In this document: piece by piece, positions 1-8,488 of the stretch
How positions within the stretch are numbered: position 1 is the stretch's first letter
How the letters are laid out: each line of letters starts with the position of its first letter
Translations under genes and position numbers: made by a program
The notes under the pieces: model-generated
What the model was told of the DNA's origin: nothing
The model's input: the letters and a program-made list of their open reading frames with translations, nothing else
Databases searched by the model: none
DNA from: a virus
Taxonomy: Duplodnaviria > Heunggongvirae > Uroviricota > Caudoviricetes
IMG/VR virus record: IMGVR_UViG_2648501206_000003
Length of the DNA: 36,546 bases
Strand: one strand, 5' to 3'

Positions 1-1935
1 GATCATTAGATGGTCACACGTTCTGCTGGTGGATGTGATTTCTTGATGACCGTTCACCTTAATTGAGTGAGCTGCCGTCTCGCCAGTTTCATTATCGCTA
101 TCGTGATGCCGATTGCCGCCAGTGTTCTCCTTGTGTGGATGTTCAGCGCCCTCCATTTCCTCCGGATCATCTTCCTGAACTTCAACCTGATACTCTTCAT
201 CGAATGTTTCCTGGTATGTTGCGTCGCCCATCACCGCGCCACAATCAGGGCAGTTGCCGCCGCCGGTCTGACCGCAGGCGGTGCAGACTTTTTCCACTTC
301 CTGTTGCGCCACTGGTTCAGGCTGTTTCGTTTCTGGCTCGTTTTGTAACGCATTTGGGCTGTTTTGTTCCGCTTTTTGGTAGTTCCGTTCCGATTCATGC
401 TGGTTCTGGTTTACAGAATCGCGGGTCTGGATCCCCTTAACCCATTTCGGATCATTCGGGTCGCTAATCCCTGCAACAAATTCTCCGCGAGAGGCAGCAA
501 GCAACTTATCGGCGTCAGGCTGGCTGATATTGGCTGCCTGCATAATTTTGTTTACTTCGTCAGCGGTAACTTTTACCGGCCCTGGTTGTGCGGTCGTGTC
601 AGATGCACCAGTATTTTGTTGTGAACCTGAGTATGTACCGTTTTTGCGGGCGAAATATTCTTCTTTCGTGATTTCAGTAGCCCCGGCAGCCAGTGCCTTA
701 TCCAGACCAGAAAGTTTGTTTGCGCGACCGTATTTTTCGCCATCCTTGTCGGTGAAGAGGAAGTAGAACGGCCCCTCACGCTCTACAGATGGTTCGACTT
801 CCACTTTGCATTCGGTTTTTTCGTTGTCCGGAATTGCCGTTTCCACTGCATCAGTTTCTGGTACTGGCGACGAGAGAGTATCAGTTGCGCTCTGATTTCT
901 TCCTTCATCTTCAAACACGCCCTTTGTAGTCAGGTATTCAGTAATGTATTTGTTCAGTGCCACAGGGTCTTTGTGAATGTCGATCGGACGTTCACGGACA
1001 AGGCCAAAAATAGTCCGGCGGTCGTAGCGAAGGGCATCAGGCTGTTTGCGCATTGATGCCGAGATACGCTTCCAGTCTTCGCGGTCGTTGTCGATAACTT
1101 CATTTTTTGCCCAGCGATGGATGCTGCCGTCAATGTTTCCGGCATCCACATCACCAGGCCAGAGAGCGTAGGCCAGTTCGTCATCCAGTGTTTTCCATGT
1201 CTGCTTGTATTCGCGATGAATGGCAGCAATGACCAGGCTGATTTTTCCTGTTGAATTTTCAGTGTGCTGTTGATTGGCTCTGGCGCGGGCGAGATCAACA
1301 ACAGACGTGTATTTTCCGGCTTCCTTGCGTTCACCTTCGCGACGTTTTTTCCAGATGCGCATCTCTGCCTGAATTTCGGGCCATTTGGCACCAGGCTTAC
1401 ATTTATGCTTAACCCACCCGATGGCATGCAGCTTAAGCTCCGGATACATAGCGTTAACTTCTGGCATTTTCATCAACGCTTCAACGATATGTCCGTCGAA
1501 TGTTGCCATGTCTTCCTGCAACAATTCCTGCGCGCTAATCACCATATCAACGGTGATGTTTTCACATGTGTCGAACTTAACCATGACAGCGTTCTGTACT
1601 TCAGGGGCCAGCTTGTCAAAAGTGACGTTCATCGGATCTGATTCAGTCTCAACCGGGACAAAGGAAGCAGACTCCTCATCCCAGCGGTTTTCCTGCATAT
1701 ATTCAGCATCCCAGGAATCGAGGGCAGGGCGGGGTATACCGGGTTTATCCTCGCAAACAAGAAATTTATAAGCGCAGTCCTGAGCAGCCGGATAATGTTC
1801 CAGGAATTGCCAGTGAAATTTTGCGCGGGCGCGACGTTCATCACCGGCTTCAATGGCAGTGGCTACAGCGACTGCACCTTCTTCCTTTATTGCCTGTTCG
1901 TCCGGAATGGCGGCGCAAATAAAGACTTTACTCAT
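1..1935 (-). CDS. recE: Exonuclease VIII (RecE-like), N-terminal and middle part (~645 codons); gene continues past the left window edge
   Basis: Minus-strand frame is open from the window edge to ATG at 1935..1933, with an in-frame stop just upstream (1942..1944) and GAGGT 8 nt before the ATG. Translation around 300..215 reads EVEKVCTACGQTGGGNCPDCGAVMGDATY, which I recognise as the RecE middle region. Absent from the ORF track because it is truncated by the edge. Confidence 0.6.
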   Translation of the reverse strand, partial: MSKVFICAAIPDEQAIKEEGAVAVATAIEAGDERRARAKFHWQFLEHYPAAQDCAYKFLVCEDKPGIPRPALDSWDAEYMQENRWDEESASFVPVETESDPMNVTFDKLAPEVQNAVMVKFDTCENITVDMVISAQELLQEDMATFDGHIVEALMKMPEVNAMYPELKLHAIGWVKHKCKPGAKWPEIQAEMRIWKKRREGERKEAGKYTSVVDLARARANQQHTENSTGKISLVIAAIHREYKQTWKTLDDELAYALWPGDVDAGNIDGSIHRWAKNEVIDNDREDWKRISASMRKQPDALRYDRRTIFGLVRERPIDIHKDPVALNKYITEYLTTKGVFEDEGRNQSATDTLSSPVPETDAVETAIPDNEKTECKVEVEPSVEREGPFYFLFTDKDGEKYGRANKLSGLDKALAAGATEITKEEYFARKNGTYSGSQQNTGASDTTAQPGPVKVTADEVNKIMQAANISQPDADKLLAASRGEFVAGISDPNDPKWVKGIQTRDSVNQNQHESERNYQKAEQNSPNALQNEPETKQPEPVAQQEVEKVCTACGQTGGGNCPDCGAVMGDATYQETFDEEYQVEVQEDDPEEMEGAEHPHKENTGGNRHHDSDNETGETAAHSIKVNGHQEITSTSRTCDHLMI

Positions 1936-2573: not shown

Positions 2574-2631
2574 AAAAAGGGCGGCAGAGCAGTCACGGAG
2601 TAAAACTGATACCGCCAAACGTCACCAGAAA
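2574..2631 (-). ncRNA. dicF: DicF-like small RNA (53 nt plus U-tract terminator)
   Basis: Minus-strand sequence TTTCTGGTGACGTTTGGCGGTATCAGTTTTACTCCGTGACTGCTCTGCCGCCC followed by TTTTT. It lies in a ~420 bp non-coding gap between the ydfC-like and dicB genes, exactly where dicF sits in Qin. Sequence match is from memory, not alignment. Confidence 0.6.
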
Positions 2632-4291: not shown

Positions 4292-4573
4292 ATGGAAGAA
4301 TTAAGAATATTTCTCAATTCTCTTTCGTCAGATGAACAGCGTATGTTTGCATGCGAGTGTGGTACCAGCATCGGTTATCTAAGAAAGGCATTGAGTAAAG
4401 GTCAAGTGTTAGGGGCATCGTTATGCGTCCTTATTGAGCGAGCCAGTAATGGTGAAGTTACACGTCAGCAACTAAGGCCTTTTGATTGGATGAATATTTG
4501 GCCCGAGCTGGAAGATACCAAAACGTTAACACAACCACTTTCTAGGAGCTTGATTCATGAAAATCAAGCATGA
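4292..4573 (+). CDS. Cro-like HTH regulator (YdaS-family-like)
   Basis: Track ORF with strong RBS AAGGAG; motif GEVTRQQLRPFDW is typical of YdaS/Cro-type proteins; first gene of the rightward operon, divergent from the repressor. Confidence 0.6.
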   Translation: MEELRIFLNSLSSDEQRMFACECGTSIGYLRKALSKGQVLGASLCVLIERASNGEVTRQQLRPFDWMNIWPELEDTKTLTQPLSRSLIHENQA

Positions 4574-4982
4574 ACACATCCGCATGGCGATGAATGCCTG
4601 GGCGCATCCGGACGGTGAAAAAGTTCCGGCAGCTGAAATAACCAGGGCTTATTTTGAACTGGGTATGACGTTCCCAGAACTGTATGACGACAGCCATCCG
4701 GAAGCCCTGGCTCGCAATACCCAGAAAATTTTCCGCTGGGTAGAGAAAGACACCCCTGATGCAGTTGAAAAAATTCAGGCGTTGTTACCAGCGATCGAAA
4801 AGGCAATGCCACCTTTGCTGGTGGCCAGAATGCGCAGCCACAGTTCAGCTTATTTTCGGGAGCTGGTGGAGACGCGGGAGCGACTGGTGAGAGACGCTGA
4901 TGATTTTGTCGCAGTGGCAATCGCCGGTTTCAATCAGATGAACCGTGGTGGCCCGGCAGGAAATGCTGTGGCAGTACATTGA
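4557..4982 (+). CDS. YdaT-like protein (proposed CII functional analogue in Rac-type prophages)
   Basis: Track ORF; N-terminus MKIKHEHI... recalled as YdaT-like; overlaps the Cro-like stop by 17 nt; sits second in the rightward operon as in racR-ydaS-ydaT. Confidence 0.5.
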   Translation: MKIKHEHIRMAMNAWAHPDGEKVPAAEITRAYFELGMTFPELYDDSHPEALARNTQKIFRWVEKDTPDAVEKIQALLPAIEKAMPPLLVARMRSHSSAYFRELVETRERLVRDADDFVAVAIAGFNQMNRGGPAGNAVAVH

Positions 4983-5053
4983 CTGACAATAGCCATATCG
5001 AATCGCTTCCGGCAACTCGTGAGTAAAAAGATTCGGTATCAGAAGAGGTGAGT

Positions 5054-6124
5054 ATGGCTAACGCCTGGCTCAGATTATGGCATGACATGCCAAATGACCC
5101 TAAGTGGCGAACAATTGCCAGGGTGTCAGGGCAGCCAATTGCAACAGTGATGGCAGTGTATATCCACCTCCTGGTGAGCGCGTCACGAAATGTCACGCGA
5201 GGTCACATTGATGTCACGACAGAAGATTTGGCAAGTGCGCTCGACGTGACAGAAGAGGTAATTGATTCAATTTTGCAGACGATGCAGGGGCGGGTACTTG
5301 ATGGTGATTTAATCACTGGATGGGAAAAACGCCAGGTGCTTAAAGAGGACAACGGCAATATTTCGCAAACCGCAAAATCTCCTGCAGAGCGCAAGAGGGC
5401 GCAGCGAGAGAGGGAAAGAAAGCGGGAACAAAATGGCGATTGTCACGGCGCGTCACGAAATGTCACGCACATGTCACGACGAGTCACGACAGATAAAGAT
5501 ACAGATAAAGATACAGATCAAGAAGATCAAAACACTATGGTCCATGGCGTAAAAAACGCCACGAACCAGGCAGGGGATGTTCAGACCGTCAATCTTGGTC
5601 AGCCAGCAGGCACGACACCGGAAGCCGATTCAGCGTATGCGCTGAAAGCCGATTCGGGCGCTGTGCAGCAGGTGATGACCCCAAGGCCGGAGCAATCACA
5701 CCAACTGCAGCAGCCTGAAGCCGATTCCGCCATTCAGCGGGAAGCCGATCGGGTAGTCCCGGAAAACACCGGGCTGTCTGTGGGACGAGTGGATTATCCG
5801 GATGTGTTCGAACAGGTCTGGCGGGAGTACCCGTTGCGTGCCGGAGCAAACCCGAAGAAATCCGCTTTCAGTGCCTGGAAGGCCAGATTACGCGAGGGGG
5901 TGCCACCAGAGGCCATGCTGGATGGCGTGAGGCGTTACGCAAGATACTTGGCGGCTACCGGGAAAACGGGAACGGAATTTGTTCAGCGAGCGACGACGTT
6001 TTTTGGACCGGACCGGAATTTTGAGAACCCCTGGTTGCTCCCGGTAAGCGGCACGAACAACCAGCGTTGTGTGAATCATATTTCTGAACCGGATAACGAA
6101 ATTCCGCCGGGCTTCAGGGGGTAA
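5054..6124 (+). CDS. Replication initiator (lambda O-like / replisome-organiser N-terminal domain); contains the probable origin
   Basis: Track ORF 5048..6124 (GTG); ATG at 5054 follows AGAAGAGG. N-terminus ANAWLRLWHDMPNDPKWRTIA resembles replisome-organiser/DUF1376-type initiators. Iteron arrays lie inside the coding sequence. Confidence 0.55.
   Translation: MANAWLRLWHDMPNDPKWRTIARVSGQPIATVMAVYIHLLVSASRNVTRGHIDVTTEDLASALDVTEEVIDSILQTMQGRVLDGDLITGWEKRQVLKEDNGNISQTAKSPAERKRAQRERERKREQNGDCHGASRNVTHMSRRVTTDKDTDKDTDQEDQNTMVHGVKNATNQAGDVQTVNLGQPAGTTPEADSAYALKADSGAVQQVMTPRPEQSHQLQQPEADSAIQREADRVVPENTGLSVGRVDYPDVFEQVWREYPLRAGANPKKSAFSAWKARLREGVPPEAMLDGVRRYARYLAATGKTGTEFVQRATTFFGPDRNFENPWLLPVSGTNNQRCVNHISEPDNEIPPGFRG
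5182..5218. repeat. Iteron cluster 1: four copies of GTCACG-type repeat at 10-11 bp phasing
   Basis: GTCACG at 5182, 5192, 5213 and GTCACA at 5202; block GCGTCACGAAATGTCACGC repeated again at 5450..5468. Confidence 0.55.
5442..5515. repeat. Iteron cluster 2 (five GTCACG repeats at ~10 bp phasing) plus adjacent AT-rich 12-bp tandem repeat; probable replication origin
   Basis: GTCACG at 5442, 5452, 5462, 5473, 5483; then GATAAAGATACA twice (5492..5515) in an A+T-rich stretch. Arrangement matches lambda ori lying inside gene O. Confidence 0.55.
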
Positions 6125-6164
6125 GTGTTAATTTCTGGTCATGAGGTAATTTTCAGGAGGACTT

Positions 6165-6590
6165 GTGGCAAAAGTTTTTACACAAGAAGAGCGGGAAAAA
6201 ATTAAAGGGCAGGTTGTTGAACTCGTACGCCGGAGTGGGCGCGAGACGTTACGGCAACTGGAAGCCAAGACAGGTGCGACAAGATATCTGATGAGCGTTC
6301 TTGCCAGAGAGCTGGTTGCCAGTGGCGATGTATACAACTCTGGTTACGGGTTATTCCCGTCTGAACAGGCGCGTAAGGACTGGCAAAATGCCCGCAAAAA
6401 ACTCTCAAGGGCAAAGGTGAAGAAACCTGCAGTGGTTGATCCGGACCTTATCTGGTCGTTACCAGACGGCGAAATACGCCGCTACGACAGGCGCCTGAAT
6501 ATAATCTGTCGCGAGTGCCGGAAGAGCGAAGCTATGCAGCGTGTACTGGCATTTTATCAAGGAAATGTTAGGTATTTTAGACGTTACTAG
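6165..6590 (+). CDS. Hypothetical protein (141 aa, possible winged-helix segment, C-terminal CxxC)
   Basis: Track ORF, GTG start preceded by AGGAGG; no family recognised; sits where lambdoid phages usually carry the helicase-loader gene. Confidence 0.45.
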   Translation: MAKVFTQEEREKIKGQVVELVRRSGRETLRQLEAKTGATRYLMSVLARELVASGDVYNSGYGLFPSEQARKDWQNARKKLSRAKVKKPAVVDPDLIWSLPDGEIRRYDRRLNIICRECRKSEAMQRVLAFYQGNVRYFRRY

Positions 6591-6743
6591 ATTAAAGAGC
6601 ATTAGTTCAGATGTGAATTGACATTTTCATGGCGCAGGGTAGAGCCAGCGTGGTTGTCCGCTTTGCGTCAAAACCAGATATTACCAGATTTAGACATATA
6701 TTCCCGATAGCCCTGCTCTGATGCTACACTCTGTGCTATTTTC

Positions 6744-7430
6744 ATGACCCCAATAAAAATATTTATGACTATTGCTGATTTCAAACGGCCTAAATTGGAG
6801 CTCCCAAACGGGGCAAACAAACTACTACTGCACTCTTGCTGTGCTCCATGTTCCGGTGAAGTGATGGAGGCGCTTCAGGCCTCGGGAATCGACTACACCA
6901 TCTTTTTCTACAACCCGAACATTCATCCTCAGAAAGAGTATTTAATTCGTAAGGATGAAAATATTCGCTTTGCTGAACAACACGGCGTGCCGTTTATCGA
7001 TGCTGATTACGACACCGACAACTGGTTTGAACGTGCCAAAGGAATGGAATGGGAGCCTGAGAGGGGGATCCGTTGTACCATGTGTTTTGACATGCGTTTT
7101 GAGCGGACAGCGTTGTACGCTGCTGAAAATGGTTTCAGTGTGATCAGCAGTTCACTGGGCATTTCACGCTGGAAAAATATGCAGCAGGTTAACGAGTGTG
7201 GGCGGCGAGCTGTTGCGCATTATCCGGGTATGGTGTACTGGGATTATAACTGGCGCAAGCAGGGCGGCTCGTCCCGTATGATTGAAATCAGCAAGCGCGA
7301 AAAATTCTATCAGCAGGAATATTGTGGCTGTGTGTATTCTCTGCGCGATACCAATCTACACCGCAAATCTCAGGGACGCCCTCTTATCAAAATTGGCCAA
7401 CTCCACTACGGAAAAGAAGAGAAGGAGTGA
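6744..7430 (+). CDS. DUF208 / QueH-like protein (candidate epoxyqueuosine reductase family); cargo gene
   Basis: Track ORF; motifs [11 protein letters not shown] and FFYNPNIHP recalled as signatures of the DUF208/QueH family; further Cys pairs (CTMC, CGC). Start could be 6744 or 6765. Confidence 0.5.
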
Positions 7431-7610
7431 TTTTATGGATCACCTTTCTGATTGATTTCATATTGGCGAGGTGACGTGAGTTAAGTAGAATGGCTGCGGG
7501 TGCTTGAGGCTATCTGTCTCAGGCATGAACACTGAAAGGCAGATAGAGAAAAGCCCCAGTTAACATTACGCGTCCGGCAAGACGCTTAACATTAATCTGA
7601 GGCTCAATCT

Positions 7611-7823
7611 ATGAACGGCAAATCTAGGTTAGCCTCTTACGTGCCGAAAGGCAAGGAGAAGCAGGCTATGAAGCAGCAAAAGGCGATGTTAATCGCCCTG
7701 ATCGTCATCTGTTTAACCGTCATTGTGACGGCACTGGTAACGAGGAAAGACCTCTGCGAGGTACGAATCCGAACCGGCCAGACGGAGGTCACTGTCTTCA
7801 CAGCTTACGAACCTGAGGAGTAA
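7611..7823 (+). CDS. mok: Mok (modulator of killing) reading frame, N-terminally extended over hok
   Basis: Track ORF of 70 aa whose last 51 residues are the Hok toxin, as in chromosomal mok/hok loci. Confidence 0.6.
   Translation: MNGKSRLASYVPKGKEKQAMKQQKAMLIALIVICLTVIVTALVTRKDLCEVRIRTGQTEVTVFTAYEPEE
7668..7823 (+). CDS. hok: Hok-family type I toxin (51 aa, HokD/RelF-like)
   Basis: MKQQKAMLIALIVICLTVIVTALVTRKDLCEVRIRTGQTEVTVFTAYEPEE, near-identical to HokD as recalled; AAGGAGAAG upstream of the ATG; stable hairpin GGCGGGGGAGAAATCCCTCGCC downstream (7831..7852). Confidence 0.85.
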   Translation: MKQQKAMLIALIVICLTVIVTALVTRKDLCEVRIRTGQTEVTVFTAYEPEE

Positions 7824-7966
7824 GAGACCAGGCGGGGGAGAAATCCCTCGCCACCTCTGATGTGTCAGGCATCCTCAACGCACCCGCACTTAACCCGCTT
7901 CGGCGTTTTTTCCGTTGATTAACTCTAGTTATTAGAGAACCGAACTTTTATTGATGGGGCAGGGAG

Positions 7967-8359
7967 ATGAAGAAACTTGTTTTAGTCGCAGGTGTAATGA
8001 TTGCAACAGTAATGTTGGGAGGGTGTGCAGCAAAGGTCGATCCAGCGTTGAAAGCAGAAGCAATGAAGCCACTAACATGTAATGATGAAAAGCAATGTGA
8101 CTTTTATTGGAAACGAGCGCAATTCTGGTTGGCTAATAATTCCTCATGGAAAATTCAAACGGCGACAGACACGCTAATTTCCACTTATAATCCCTCTCCA
8201 AATAGTCCATTCCTCGCTTATCAAGTGAGTAAAATGCCAAATGAAGATGGATCCTCAAGAATTTTCATCAAGCCTTTTTGCGATAATATGTTTGGCTGTC
8301 AACCAAACCCCTATCAGACAGTTGTTTCCTTTAAAAACTTCGTTAAAACTGGGCAGTAA
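7967..8359 (+). CDS. Putative lipoprotein (130 aa); cargo gene
   Basis: Signal peptide with lipobox MLGGC near the N-terminus; visibly A+T-richer than flanking genes; followed by an intrinsic terminator. Confidence 0.55.
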   Translation: MKKLVLVAGVMIATVMLGGCAAKVDPALKAEAMKPLTCNDEKQCDFYWKRAQFWLANNSSWKIQTATDTLISTYNPSPNSPFLAYQVSKMPNEDGSSRIFIKPFCDNMFGCQPNPYQTVVSFKNFVKTGQ

Positions 8360-8488
8360 TGTATAGCGGGACGGTAAATTATTAGTGAAAACGCTGTAAA
8401 CCCTATGGATTGAGTCAGGATTTAATCCGATAATTATTCTATCGTTCCTTTACAAGTCCGGCATATTACCTTCAGTTTGTTTTAGCAT

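Follow-up and report, generated by a model that had tools for sequence, protein, structure and literature searches.

A hok/mok/sok type I toxin–antitoxin locus of the hokD/hokW type in a lambda-like prophage, with its predicted antisense RNA placed by homology

The stretch of DNA analysed here, called the window throughout, comprises 36,546 nucleotides of a virus of the class Caudoviricetes (IMG/VR record IMGVR_UViG_2648501206_000003), and its positions 7463–7911 very probably hold an intact hok/mok/sok type I toxin–antitoxin module of the hokD/hokW type. The locus is already known and ordinary: its toxin is annotated in RefSeq, and a close relative has been characterised experimentally. Judged from alignments, the window appears to carry the full-length version of a locus of which Escherichia coli K-12 retains only the truncated hokD. 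Genome annotation of this locus calls the toxin ORF alone, while the mok frame, the Sok RNA and the Sok promoter can be added by homology (Table 1).

The module is hosted by a lambda-like prophage of E. coli whose genes follow one another in the order DicF small RNA, repressor/Cro, replication, QueH, hok, DUF968, RusA and Q, with lysis, terminase, head and tail genes beyond Q in the window. The locus lies in the nin region, between the replication genes and the antiterminator Q, and hok has the orientation of the early genes flanking it (replication upstream, Q downstream). The QueH-like neighbour proposed in the initial annotation was borne out by a Pfam search (Table 1). Directly 3' of hok, an ORF of 130 aa (7967–8359, plus strand) with a lipoprotein-like N-terminus (…LGGC) holds the position of rem in the Qin prophage of K-12; a Pfam search with this ORF gave no match. 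The DicF gene (2579–2630, minus strand) is a full-length match of 76.7 bits, and in the related prophage of strain EBJ003 DicB and YdfC are annotated nearby, pointing to an early-left region of the Qin type.

Of 5426 complete E. coli genomes, 4935 have the 490-nt stretch comprising the locus (7431–7920), 3882 of them at least 80% of it; per genome the median is two places and the maximum nine. The stretch also matches 101 records of the phage collection, among them 933W and VT2-Sakai, in which mokW, hokW and a minus-strand sokW are annotated. The genome of EBJ003 matches the same stretch at 100%. An identification of the window with the EBJ003 prophage was nevertheless rejected, as the identity of 99.4% extends only over 4551–8404, the remainder being 94–97% identical or unaligned; moreover, the four tRNA genes located downstream of Q in EBJ003 were not found in the window by ARAGORN. 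From these alignments the window is a mosaic that is related to the EBJ003 prophage.

Table 1. Features of the hok/mok/sok locus and its surroundings, in window coordinates, and sequence divergence among 69 unique loci encoding a Hok with 98% identity or more to that of the window
Feature	Position	Strand	Details
QueH homologue (epoxyqueuosine reductase)	6744–7430	+	PF02677, E = 1.1e-65; directly upstream of hok
Predicted hok promoter	7463–7491	+	-35 TTGGCG 7463–7468, 17-nt spacer, -10 TAGAAT 7486–7491
Predicted full-length hok mRNA, 414 nt	7498–7911	+	5' end from promoter and Rfam start, 3' end from T-run
tac (translational activator element)	7498–7509	+	mRNA 5' end; pairs with fbi (full-length) or ucb (truncated)
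Leader string GCTTGAGGCTATCTG	7502–7516	+	
Leader string GGCAGATAGAGAAAAGCCCC	7538–7557	+	
ucb (anti-SD box)	7551–7559	+	element name after PMC9841398
Predicted Sok, 71 nt	7619 to ~7549	-	homology to sokW and sokC
Sok target hairpin of the truncated mRNA	7599–7636	+	loop 7615–7622; from truncated and local folds, -14.7 kcal/mol locally
mok frame, 70 codons	7611–7823	+	ORF list; in frame with hok; SD GAGG 7599–7602
Predicted Sok promoter	7654–7626	-	-35 TTGCCT 7654–7649, 17-nt spacer, -10 TAACCT 7631–7626
hok toxin gene, 51 aa	7668–7823	+	PF01848 HOK_GEF; SD AAGGAG 7653–7658
3' stem-loop, 9 bp, GAAA loop	7831–7852	+	in all folds computed
fbi (fold-back inhibitory element)	7873–7885	+	CCTCAACGCACCC; identical in 65 of the 81 related loci
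Weak intrinsic terminator of hok mRNA	7896–7911	+	3-bp stem, UUCG loop, T6; from fold
Sok nt 2–6	7614–7618		mean pairwise difference 0.53 per site
Whole variable patch	7604–7625		mean pairwise difference 0.31 per site
Rest of leader	7498–7603		mean pairwise difference 0.05 per site
Sok promoter and hok SD	7626–7667		mean pairwise difference 0.02 per site
hok third-codon positions			mean pairwise difference 0.012 per site

The toxin covers 42 of the 42 positions of the Pfam profile HOK_GEF (E = 2.4e-22), which, together with the Rfam leader match described below, places the assignment to a hok/mok type I locus far beyond chance. It is 98% identical to HokD of K-12, and RefSeq calls it hokD in a stretch that is 100% identical to that of the window. 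As the initial annotation had stated, and the ORF list confirms, hok lies in frame inside the mok frame, a layout shared by mokW of phage 933W and mokC of K-12. By analogy with the toxic HokW of 933W, to which it is 90% identical, the Hok of the window would be toxic when expressed. The codon of Tyr47, TAC (7806–7808), forms with the following G a UACG motif of the type that TadA subjects to A-to-I editing, and this motif of the hok Tyr codon is conserved in hokC and in R1 hok.

The hok promoter was the sole sigma-70-like match (9/12) in a consensus scan of 7300–8050. Its -10 box, conserved in 933W and in Rac 442/2, ends 6 nt before 7498, where the Rfam leader model begins, and the position of the promoter together with the start of the model places the beginning of the hok mRNA at about 7498. 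The resemblance of the leader to that of plasmid R1, which the initial annotation had noticed, holds: both leader strings stand where it suggested, and the region is matched by the Rfam leader model. The tac sequence, GGGTGCTTGAGGC, is shared by 80 of the 81 related IMG/VR loci.

Folding of the 414-nt mRNA yielded a minimum free energy of -158.2 kcal/mol (z = -5.3 versus shuffles), with the 5' and 3' ends paired through 12 bp between tac and fbi. In the same full-length fold ucb (7552–7557) pairs with 7599–7604, so that the Shine–Dalgarno sequence of mok is hidden. A centroid structure contains a metastable 5' hairpin (7500–7526). Truncation of the 3' end at any point within 7856–7872 leads to a predicted switch, in which 7498–7505 of tac pairs with 7551–7557 of ucb, while the SD segment 7599–7604 pairs with dcb (7631–7636) to give the Sok target hairpin. 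No YUNR U-turn motif was seen by eye in the loop of this hairpin. The scheme of tac/fbi, ucb and SD/dcb was described for R1 (PMC9841398), and the folds predicted for the window match it; closure by tac/fbi and refolding after 3' truncation are thus predicted to reproduce the classical hok fold. The stable hairpin pointed out in the initial annotation downstream of hok formed in every fold, and its variants in 79 of the 81 related loci give this 9-bp hairpin in every case, the other two loci being gapped; by analogy with R1 (PMC9841398) it is presumed to be the protective end of the processed mRNA. The terminator of the window, CCCGCTTCGGCGTTTTTT, with its 3-bp stem, is a minority form found in 5 of the 81 loci, the common one being ACCCGCTTCGGCGGGTTTT with a 6-bp stem ACCCGC/GCGGGT (53 of 81).

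The Rfam family RF01794, labelled 'sok antitoxin', matches the plus strand of the window at 7498–7673 with 111.9 bits (gathering score 59; E = 7.4e-25) and over the full length of the model (1–157). Taken at its label and score, this match would itself be the antitoxin, a plus-strand RNA of 176 nt, a reading that retains next to no probability and was rejected by a comparison of strands. At the hokC locus of K-12 (L004) RF01794 matches the minus strand (502–654), whereas sokC is annotated on the plus strand; in 933W (L002) it matches the plus strand (1521–1695), whereas sokW lies on the minus strand; the match in the R1-type IncFII plasmid locus (L215 182–353, 87 bits) is likewise on the hok strand. 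The hokD locus of K-12 gave no match with RF01794. Since the model begins at the 5' end of the mRNA and stops at the hok AUG, and its match lies on the hok strand in all cases examined, RF01794 models the sense hok mRNA leader and carries no information on the strand or extent of Sok. The Rfam scan put forward in the initial annotation is therefore informative for the leader and misleading as a check for Sok, and pipelines trusting the label of RF01794 assign the antitoxin to the wrong strand and a length about 2.5 times too great.

The predicted Sok RNA was placed by other means. The alignment of 933W with the window is gapless between the tac hairpin and hok, so that the coordinates of the annotated sokW (L002 1571–1641, minus strand, with the mokW start at 1633) transfer one to one. 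The 5' end of sokC in K-12 is G553 of L004, which lies 8 nt into mokC, the same offset as that of G7619 from A7611 of mok. An antisense RNA had been expected in the initial annotation on the minus strand around 7560–7640; the strand stands, while the interval gives way to 7619–7549 for the RNA and 7626–7654 for its promoter. The annotated sokC extends 6 nt past its U-run, and R1 Sok, an RNA of 64 nt, would likewise run past it, so the 3' end of Sok in the window may lie anywhere from 7549 to about 7539. As predicted, Sok starts with a single-stranded 5' tail of 14 nt over the mok AUG, continues into a long hairpin and then reads GGGGCUUUU; the tail is complementary to the 5' arm and part of the loop of the target hairpin in the truncated mRNA.

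The predicted Sok promoter is followed by a 6-nt discriminator and the start G7619, and positions 7625–7660 are identical to 933W, the promoter boxes being those of sokW. Takada et al. mutated the -10 box of sokW from TAACCT to GAGCCG (primers YO-421 and YO-422, changing TAGGTTA on the plus strand to CCGGCTC), which released the toxicity of HokW, and sokW supplied in trans rescued the cells; sokW RNA was detected on northern blots and depended in part on RNase III and Hfq (PMC8621323). By analogy, Sok would be transcribed in the strain carrying the prophage of the window.

A consensus scan of 7300–8050 for promoters and terminators found nothing on the minus strand, as would be expected if there were no antisense RNA and hok were controlled solely by the folding of its mRNA. 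The -10 box of Sok matches 3/6 of the consensus and its U-run consists of 4 U, both below the scan thresholds; since such weak boxes are the norm of the family and function in sokW, the empty scan was rejected as evidence of absence. Control by mRNA folding alone is very improbable in view of the conservation of the antisense promoter: the architecture of -35 box, 17–18-nt spacer, -10 box and +1 is kept in position in 22 loci from five genera (Escherichia, Kluyvera, Photorhabdus, Pantoea and Citrobacter), with G at +1 in 21 of them, and the identical promoter of sokW is functional. The hairpin also speaks against it. The 71-nt RNA folds at -29.9 kcal/mol (z = -4.9) versus -19.1 kcal/mol for the plus strand over the same bases, and in all of 14 distinct hairpin variants from the same five genera the minus strand is more stable by 4–11 kcal/mol and has 2–4 G-U pairs versus 0–1 on the plus strand. 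An RNAalifold consensus of 17 divergent predicted Sok sequences, including the R1-type plasmid copy, keeps the outer stem, with a U-G wobble in 17 of 17 and a G-U pair in 14 of 17, positions that would be A-C mismatches if the opposite strand were folded; compensatory double changes are seen in four more pairs. The initial annotation had allowed for finding neither a Sok-like RNA nor an antisense promoter. What homology, folding and covariation point to is a minus-strand RNA with its promoter inside mok, its 5' tail over the mok start and a terminator-like hairpin with a U-run, placed as in sokW and sokC.

Among the closest relatives of the locus is hokW-sokW of 933W and of the Sakai prophage Sp5, with an in-frame mok and a 57-nt offset as in the window. 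Its tac, ucb, fbi and 3' hairpin are conserved with the window, and sokW has identical promoter boxes and an identical whole hairpin, 65 of the 71 nt of Sok being shared; all six differences fall within the 14-nt 5' tail (GCCGUUCAUA in the window versus GUUCAGCAUG in sokW). The two loci also differ in the C-terminus of the toxin (TAYEPEE in Hok versus VDYESEK in HokW) and downstream of fbi, where 933W diverges and the window has its terminator.

The alignments to hokD, hokC/gef and R1 suggested in the initial annotation set the remaining relatives in order. K-12 hokD (relF) of the Qin prophage has in common with the window the downstream 3' UTR, the DUF968/YdfU-type gene and the Q antiterminator, whereas upstream the homology begins only at window position 7654, 14 nt before the hok AUG, and relB-relE stand directly upstream, which upholds the earlier remark that the window locus is not in a relBE context. 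With homology only from 7654, K-12 hokD has no hok promoter, no tac or ucb, no mok start and no Sok, and part of the Sok promoter is missing as well; this frequent reference is a truncated form, and the window displays the intact arrangement. The hok/sok (parB) locus of R1 has the same order of elements and shares the blocks GCTTGAGGCT..TCTG, GGCAGA.AGA..AGCCCC, GAGGC, AGCCTCTTAC and CAAGGAGAAG, as well as the G-N5-CAU design of the Sok 5' end. Its Sok differs by a shorter hairpin, a -10 box TATCCT and a -35 box TTGCGC, its Hok is much more divergent from that of the window (44% identity is reported between HokW and R1 Hok; PMC8621323), and the locus is plasmid-borne, with a proven role in post-segregational killing. 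The hokC/sokC (gef) locus of K-12, a core-chromosome locus flanked by IS186, has a leader about 74% identical to that of the window and an in-frame mokC, but its sokC, of 59 nt, has a shorter hairpin and a degenerate -10 box (CACTCT). SokW (L002 ~1633–1641, minus strand) and SokC (L004 553–561, plus strand) have an identical sequence of the first nine nucleotides, GUUCAGCAU, and different hairpins; cross-recognition between a prophage locus and the core-chromosome locus is conceivable.

A locus intact in sequence could still be a functionally silent relic resembling the K-12 chromosomal hok loci, with Hok never reaching harmful levels. A preprint (bioRxiv 10.1101/2025.08.07.668861) describes the earlier-tested chromosomal hokA, hokB and hokC as giving no post-segregational killing, and the weakened minority variant of the hok terminator in the window would agree with such a state. 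So would the Tyr codon at 7806–7808, which is an unedited TAC in the DNA; the same preprint reports that hokD mRNA undergoes A-to-I editing at the Tyr codon, converting it to Cys, and that the analogous edit in HokB enhances toxicity. Silence of this kind is nonetheless unlikely here, as none of the elements is disrupted, from the two promoters and the two ORFs to tac, ucb, SD, dcb, fbi and the 3' hairpin, and the regulatory core is identical to that of the functional hokW-sokW. In addition, the synonymous sites of hok and the regulatory boxes are almost invariant among the 69 unique related loci, which argues for purifying selection.

The mode of action of an intact module can be outlined with steps taken from the R1 paradigm and matched here by folding. 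A weak constitutive promoter would direct the synthesis of the hok mRNA of about 414 nt, in which tac pairs with fbi and ucb hides the ribosome-binding site of mok, so that the full-length transcript would be neither translated nor bound by Sok. Slow trimming of the 3' end to the hairpin at 7831–7852, a processing step assumed from the paradigm, would strip off fbi; tac would then pair with ucb, and the mok SD would enter the hairpin 7599–7636, making the mRNA both translatable and a target of Sok. The single-stranded 5' tail of Sok would pair across the mok start and block the translation of mok and, by coupling, of hok, and the duplex of Sok and hok mRNA would presumably be cut by RNase III. 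Transcription of Sok, its instability and cleavage of the duplex have experimental backing in the relatives sokW (PMC8621323) and R1 (PMC9841398). Once Sok synthesis stops, the short-lived Sok would be lost, the stable processed mRNA would be translated, and Hok would damage the inner membrane.

Mitomycin C treatment causes a RecA-dependent loss of sokW in Sp5; HokW then reaches the inner membrane roughly one hour ahead of the endolysin, and deletion of the hokW-sokW locus halves phage release (PMC8621323). By analogy, the most likely role of the module in the window is the one shown for hokW-sokW, namely that Hok hastens lysis and phage release once Sok has been lost on prophage induction. 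This induction-linked role may not transfer from 933W, since the 933W locus is located close to the right genome end and that of the window in the nin region beside QueH. In the latter position, read-through from an early promoter after induction could disturb the convergent Sok promoter. Prophage addiction and the exclusion of other phages are possible alternative roles.

The most variable part of the locus is the Sok 5' tail. In the 69 unique loci compared in Table 1, all with a Hok at 98% identity or more to that of the window, nucleotides 2–6 of Sok are about 40 times more divergent than the synonymous sites of hok (Table 1), and at least 10 tail alleles can be distinguished, although the loci are otherwise near-identical. 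The patch 7614–7618 belongs at once to the Sok tail, the loop of the target hairpin and mok codons 2–3. Almost all loci, from that of R1 to those of Photorhabdus, preserve a frame of the +1 G, a short variable stretch (five bases in most) and CAU. A search of the literature on hok/sok cross-talk found nothing on the allelic diversity of the Sok tail.

Because Sok is cis-encoded, any change in the patch preserves self-complementarity, and the patch could drift freely; relaxed constraint together with recombination among old alleles is an alternative explanation of its diversity. The roughly 40-fold divergence suggests either such recombination or diversifying selection for orthogonality. The latter would make 7614–7618 a rapidly diversifying address, each prophage hok/sok copy answering only to its own Sok, an idea that can be advanced only tentatively and is somewhat doubtful. 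Three co-resident hokD-type copies differ from one another in E. coli ECMA0423, and likewise in Shigella flexneri SFBU1023, a comparison of two genomes only; the IMG/VR comparison of co-residence also covers only two genomes with two contigs each, one pair having different tails and the other identical ones. The variability of the tail bears on the way in which poly-lysogenic strains keep many near-identical type I modules free of cross-talk and, if the address reading is true, several prophages could coexist in one cell, each with an independent killing or lysis timer.
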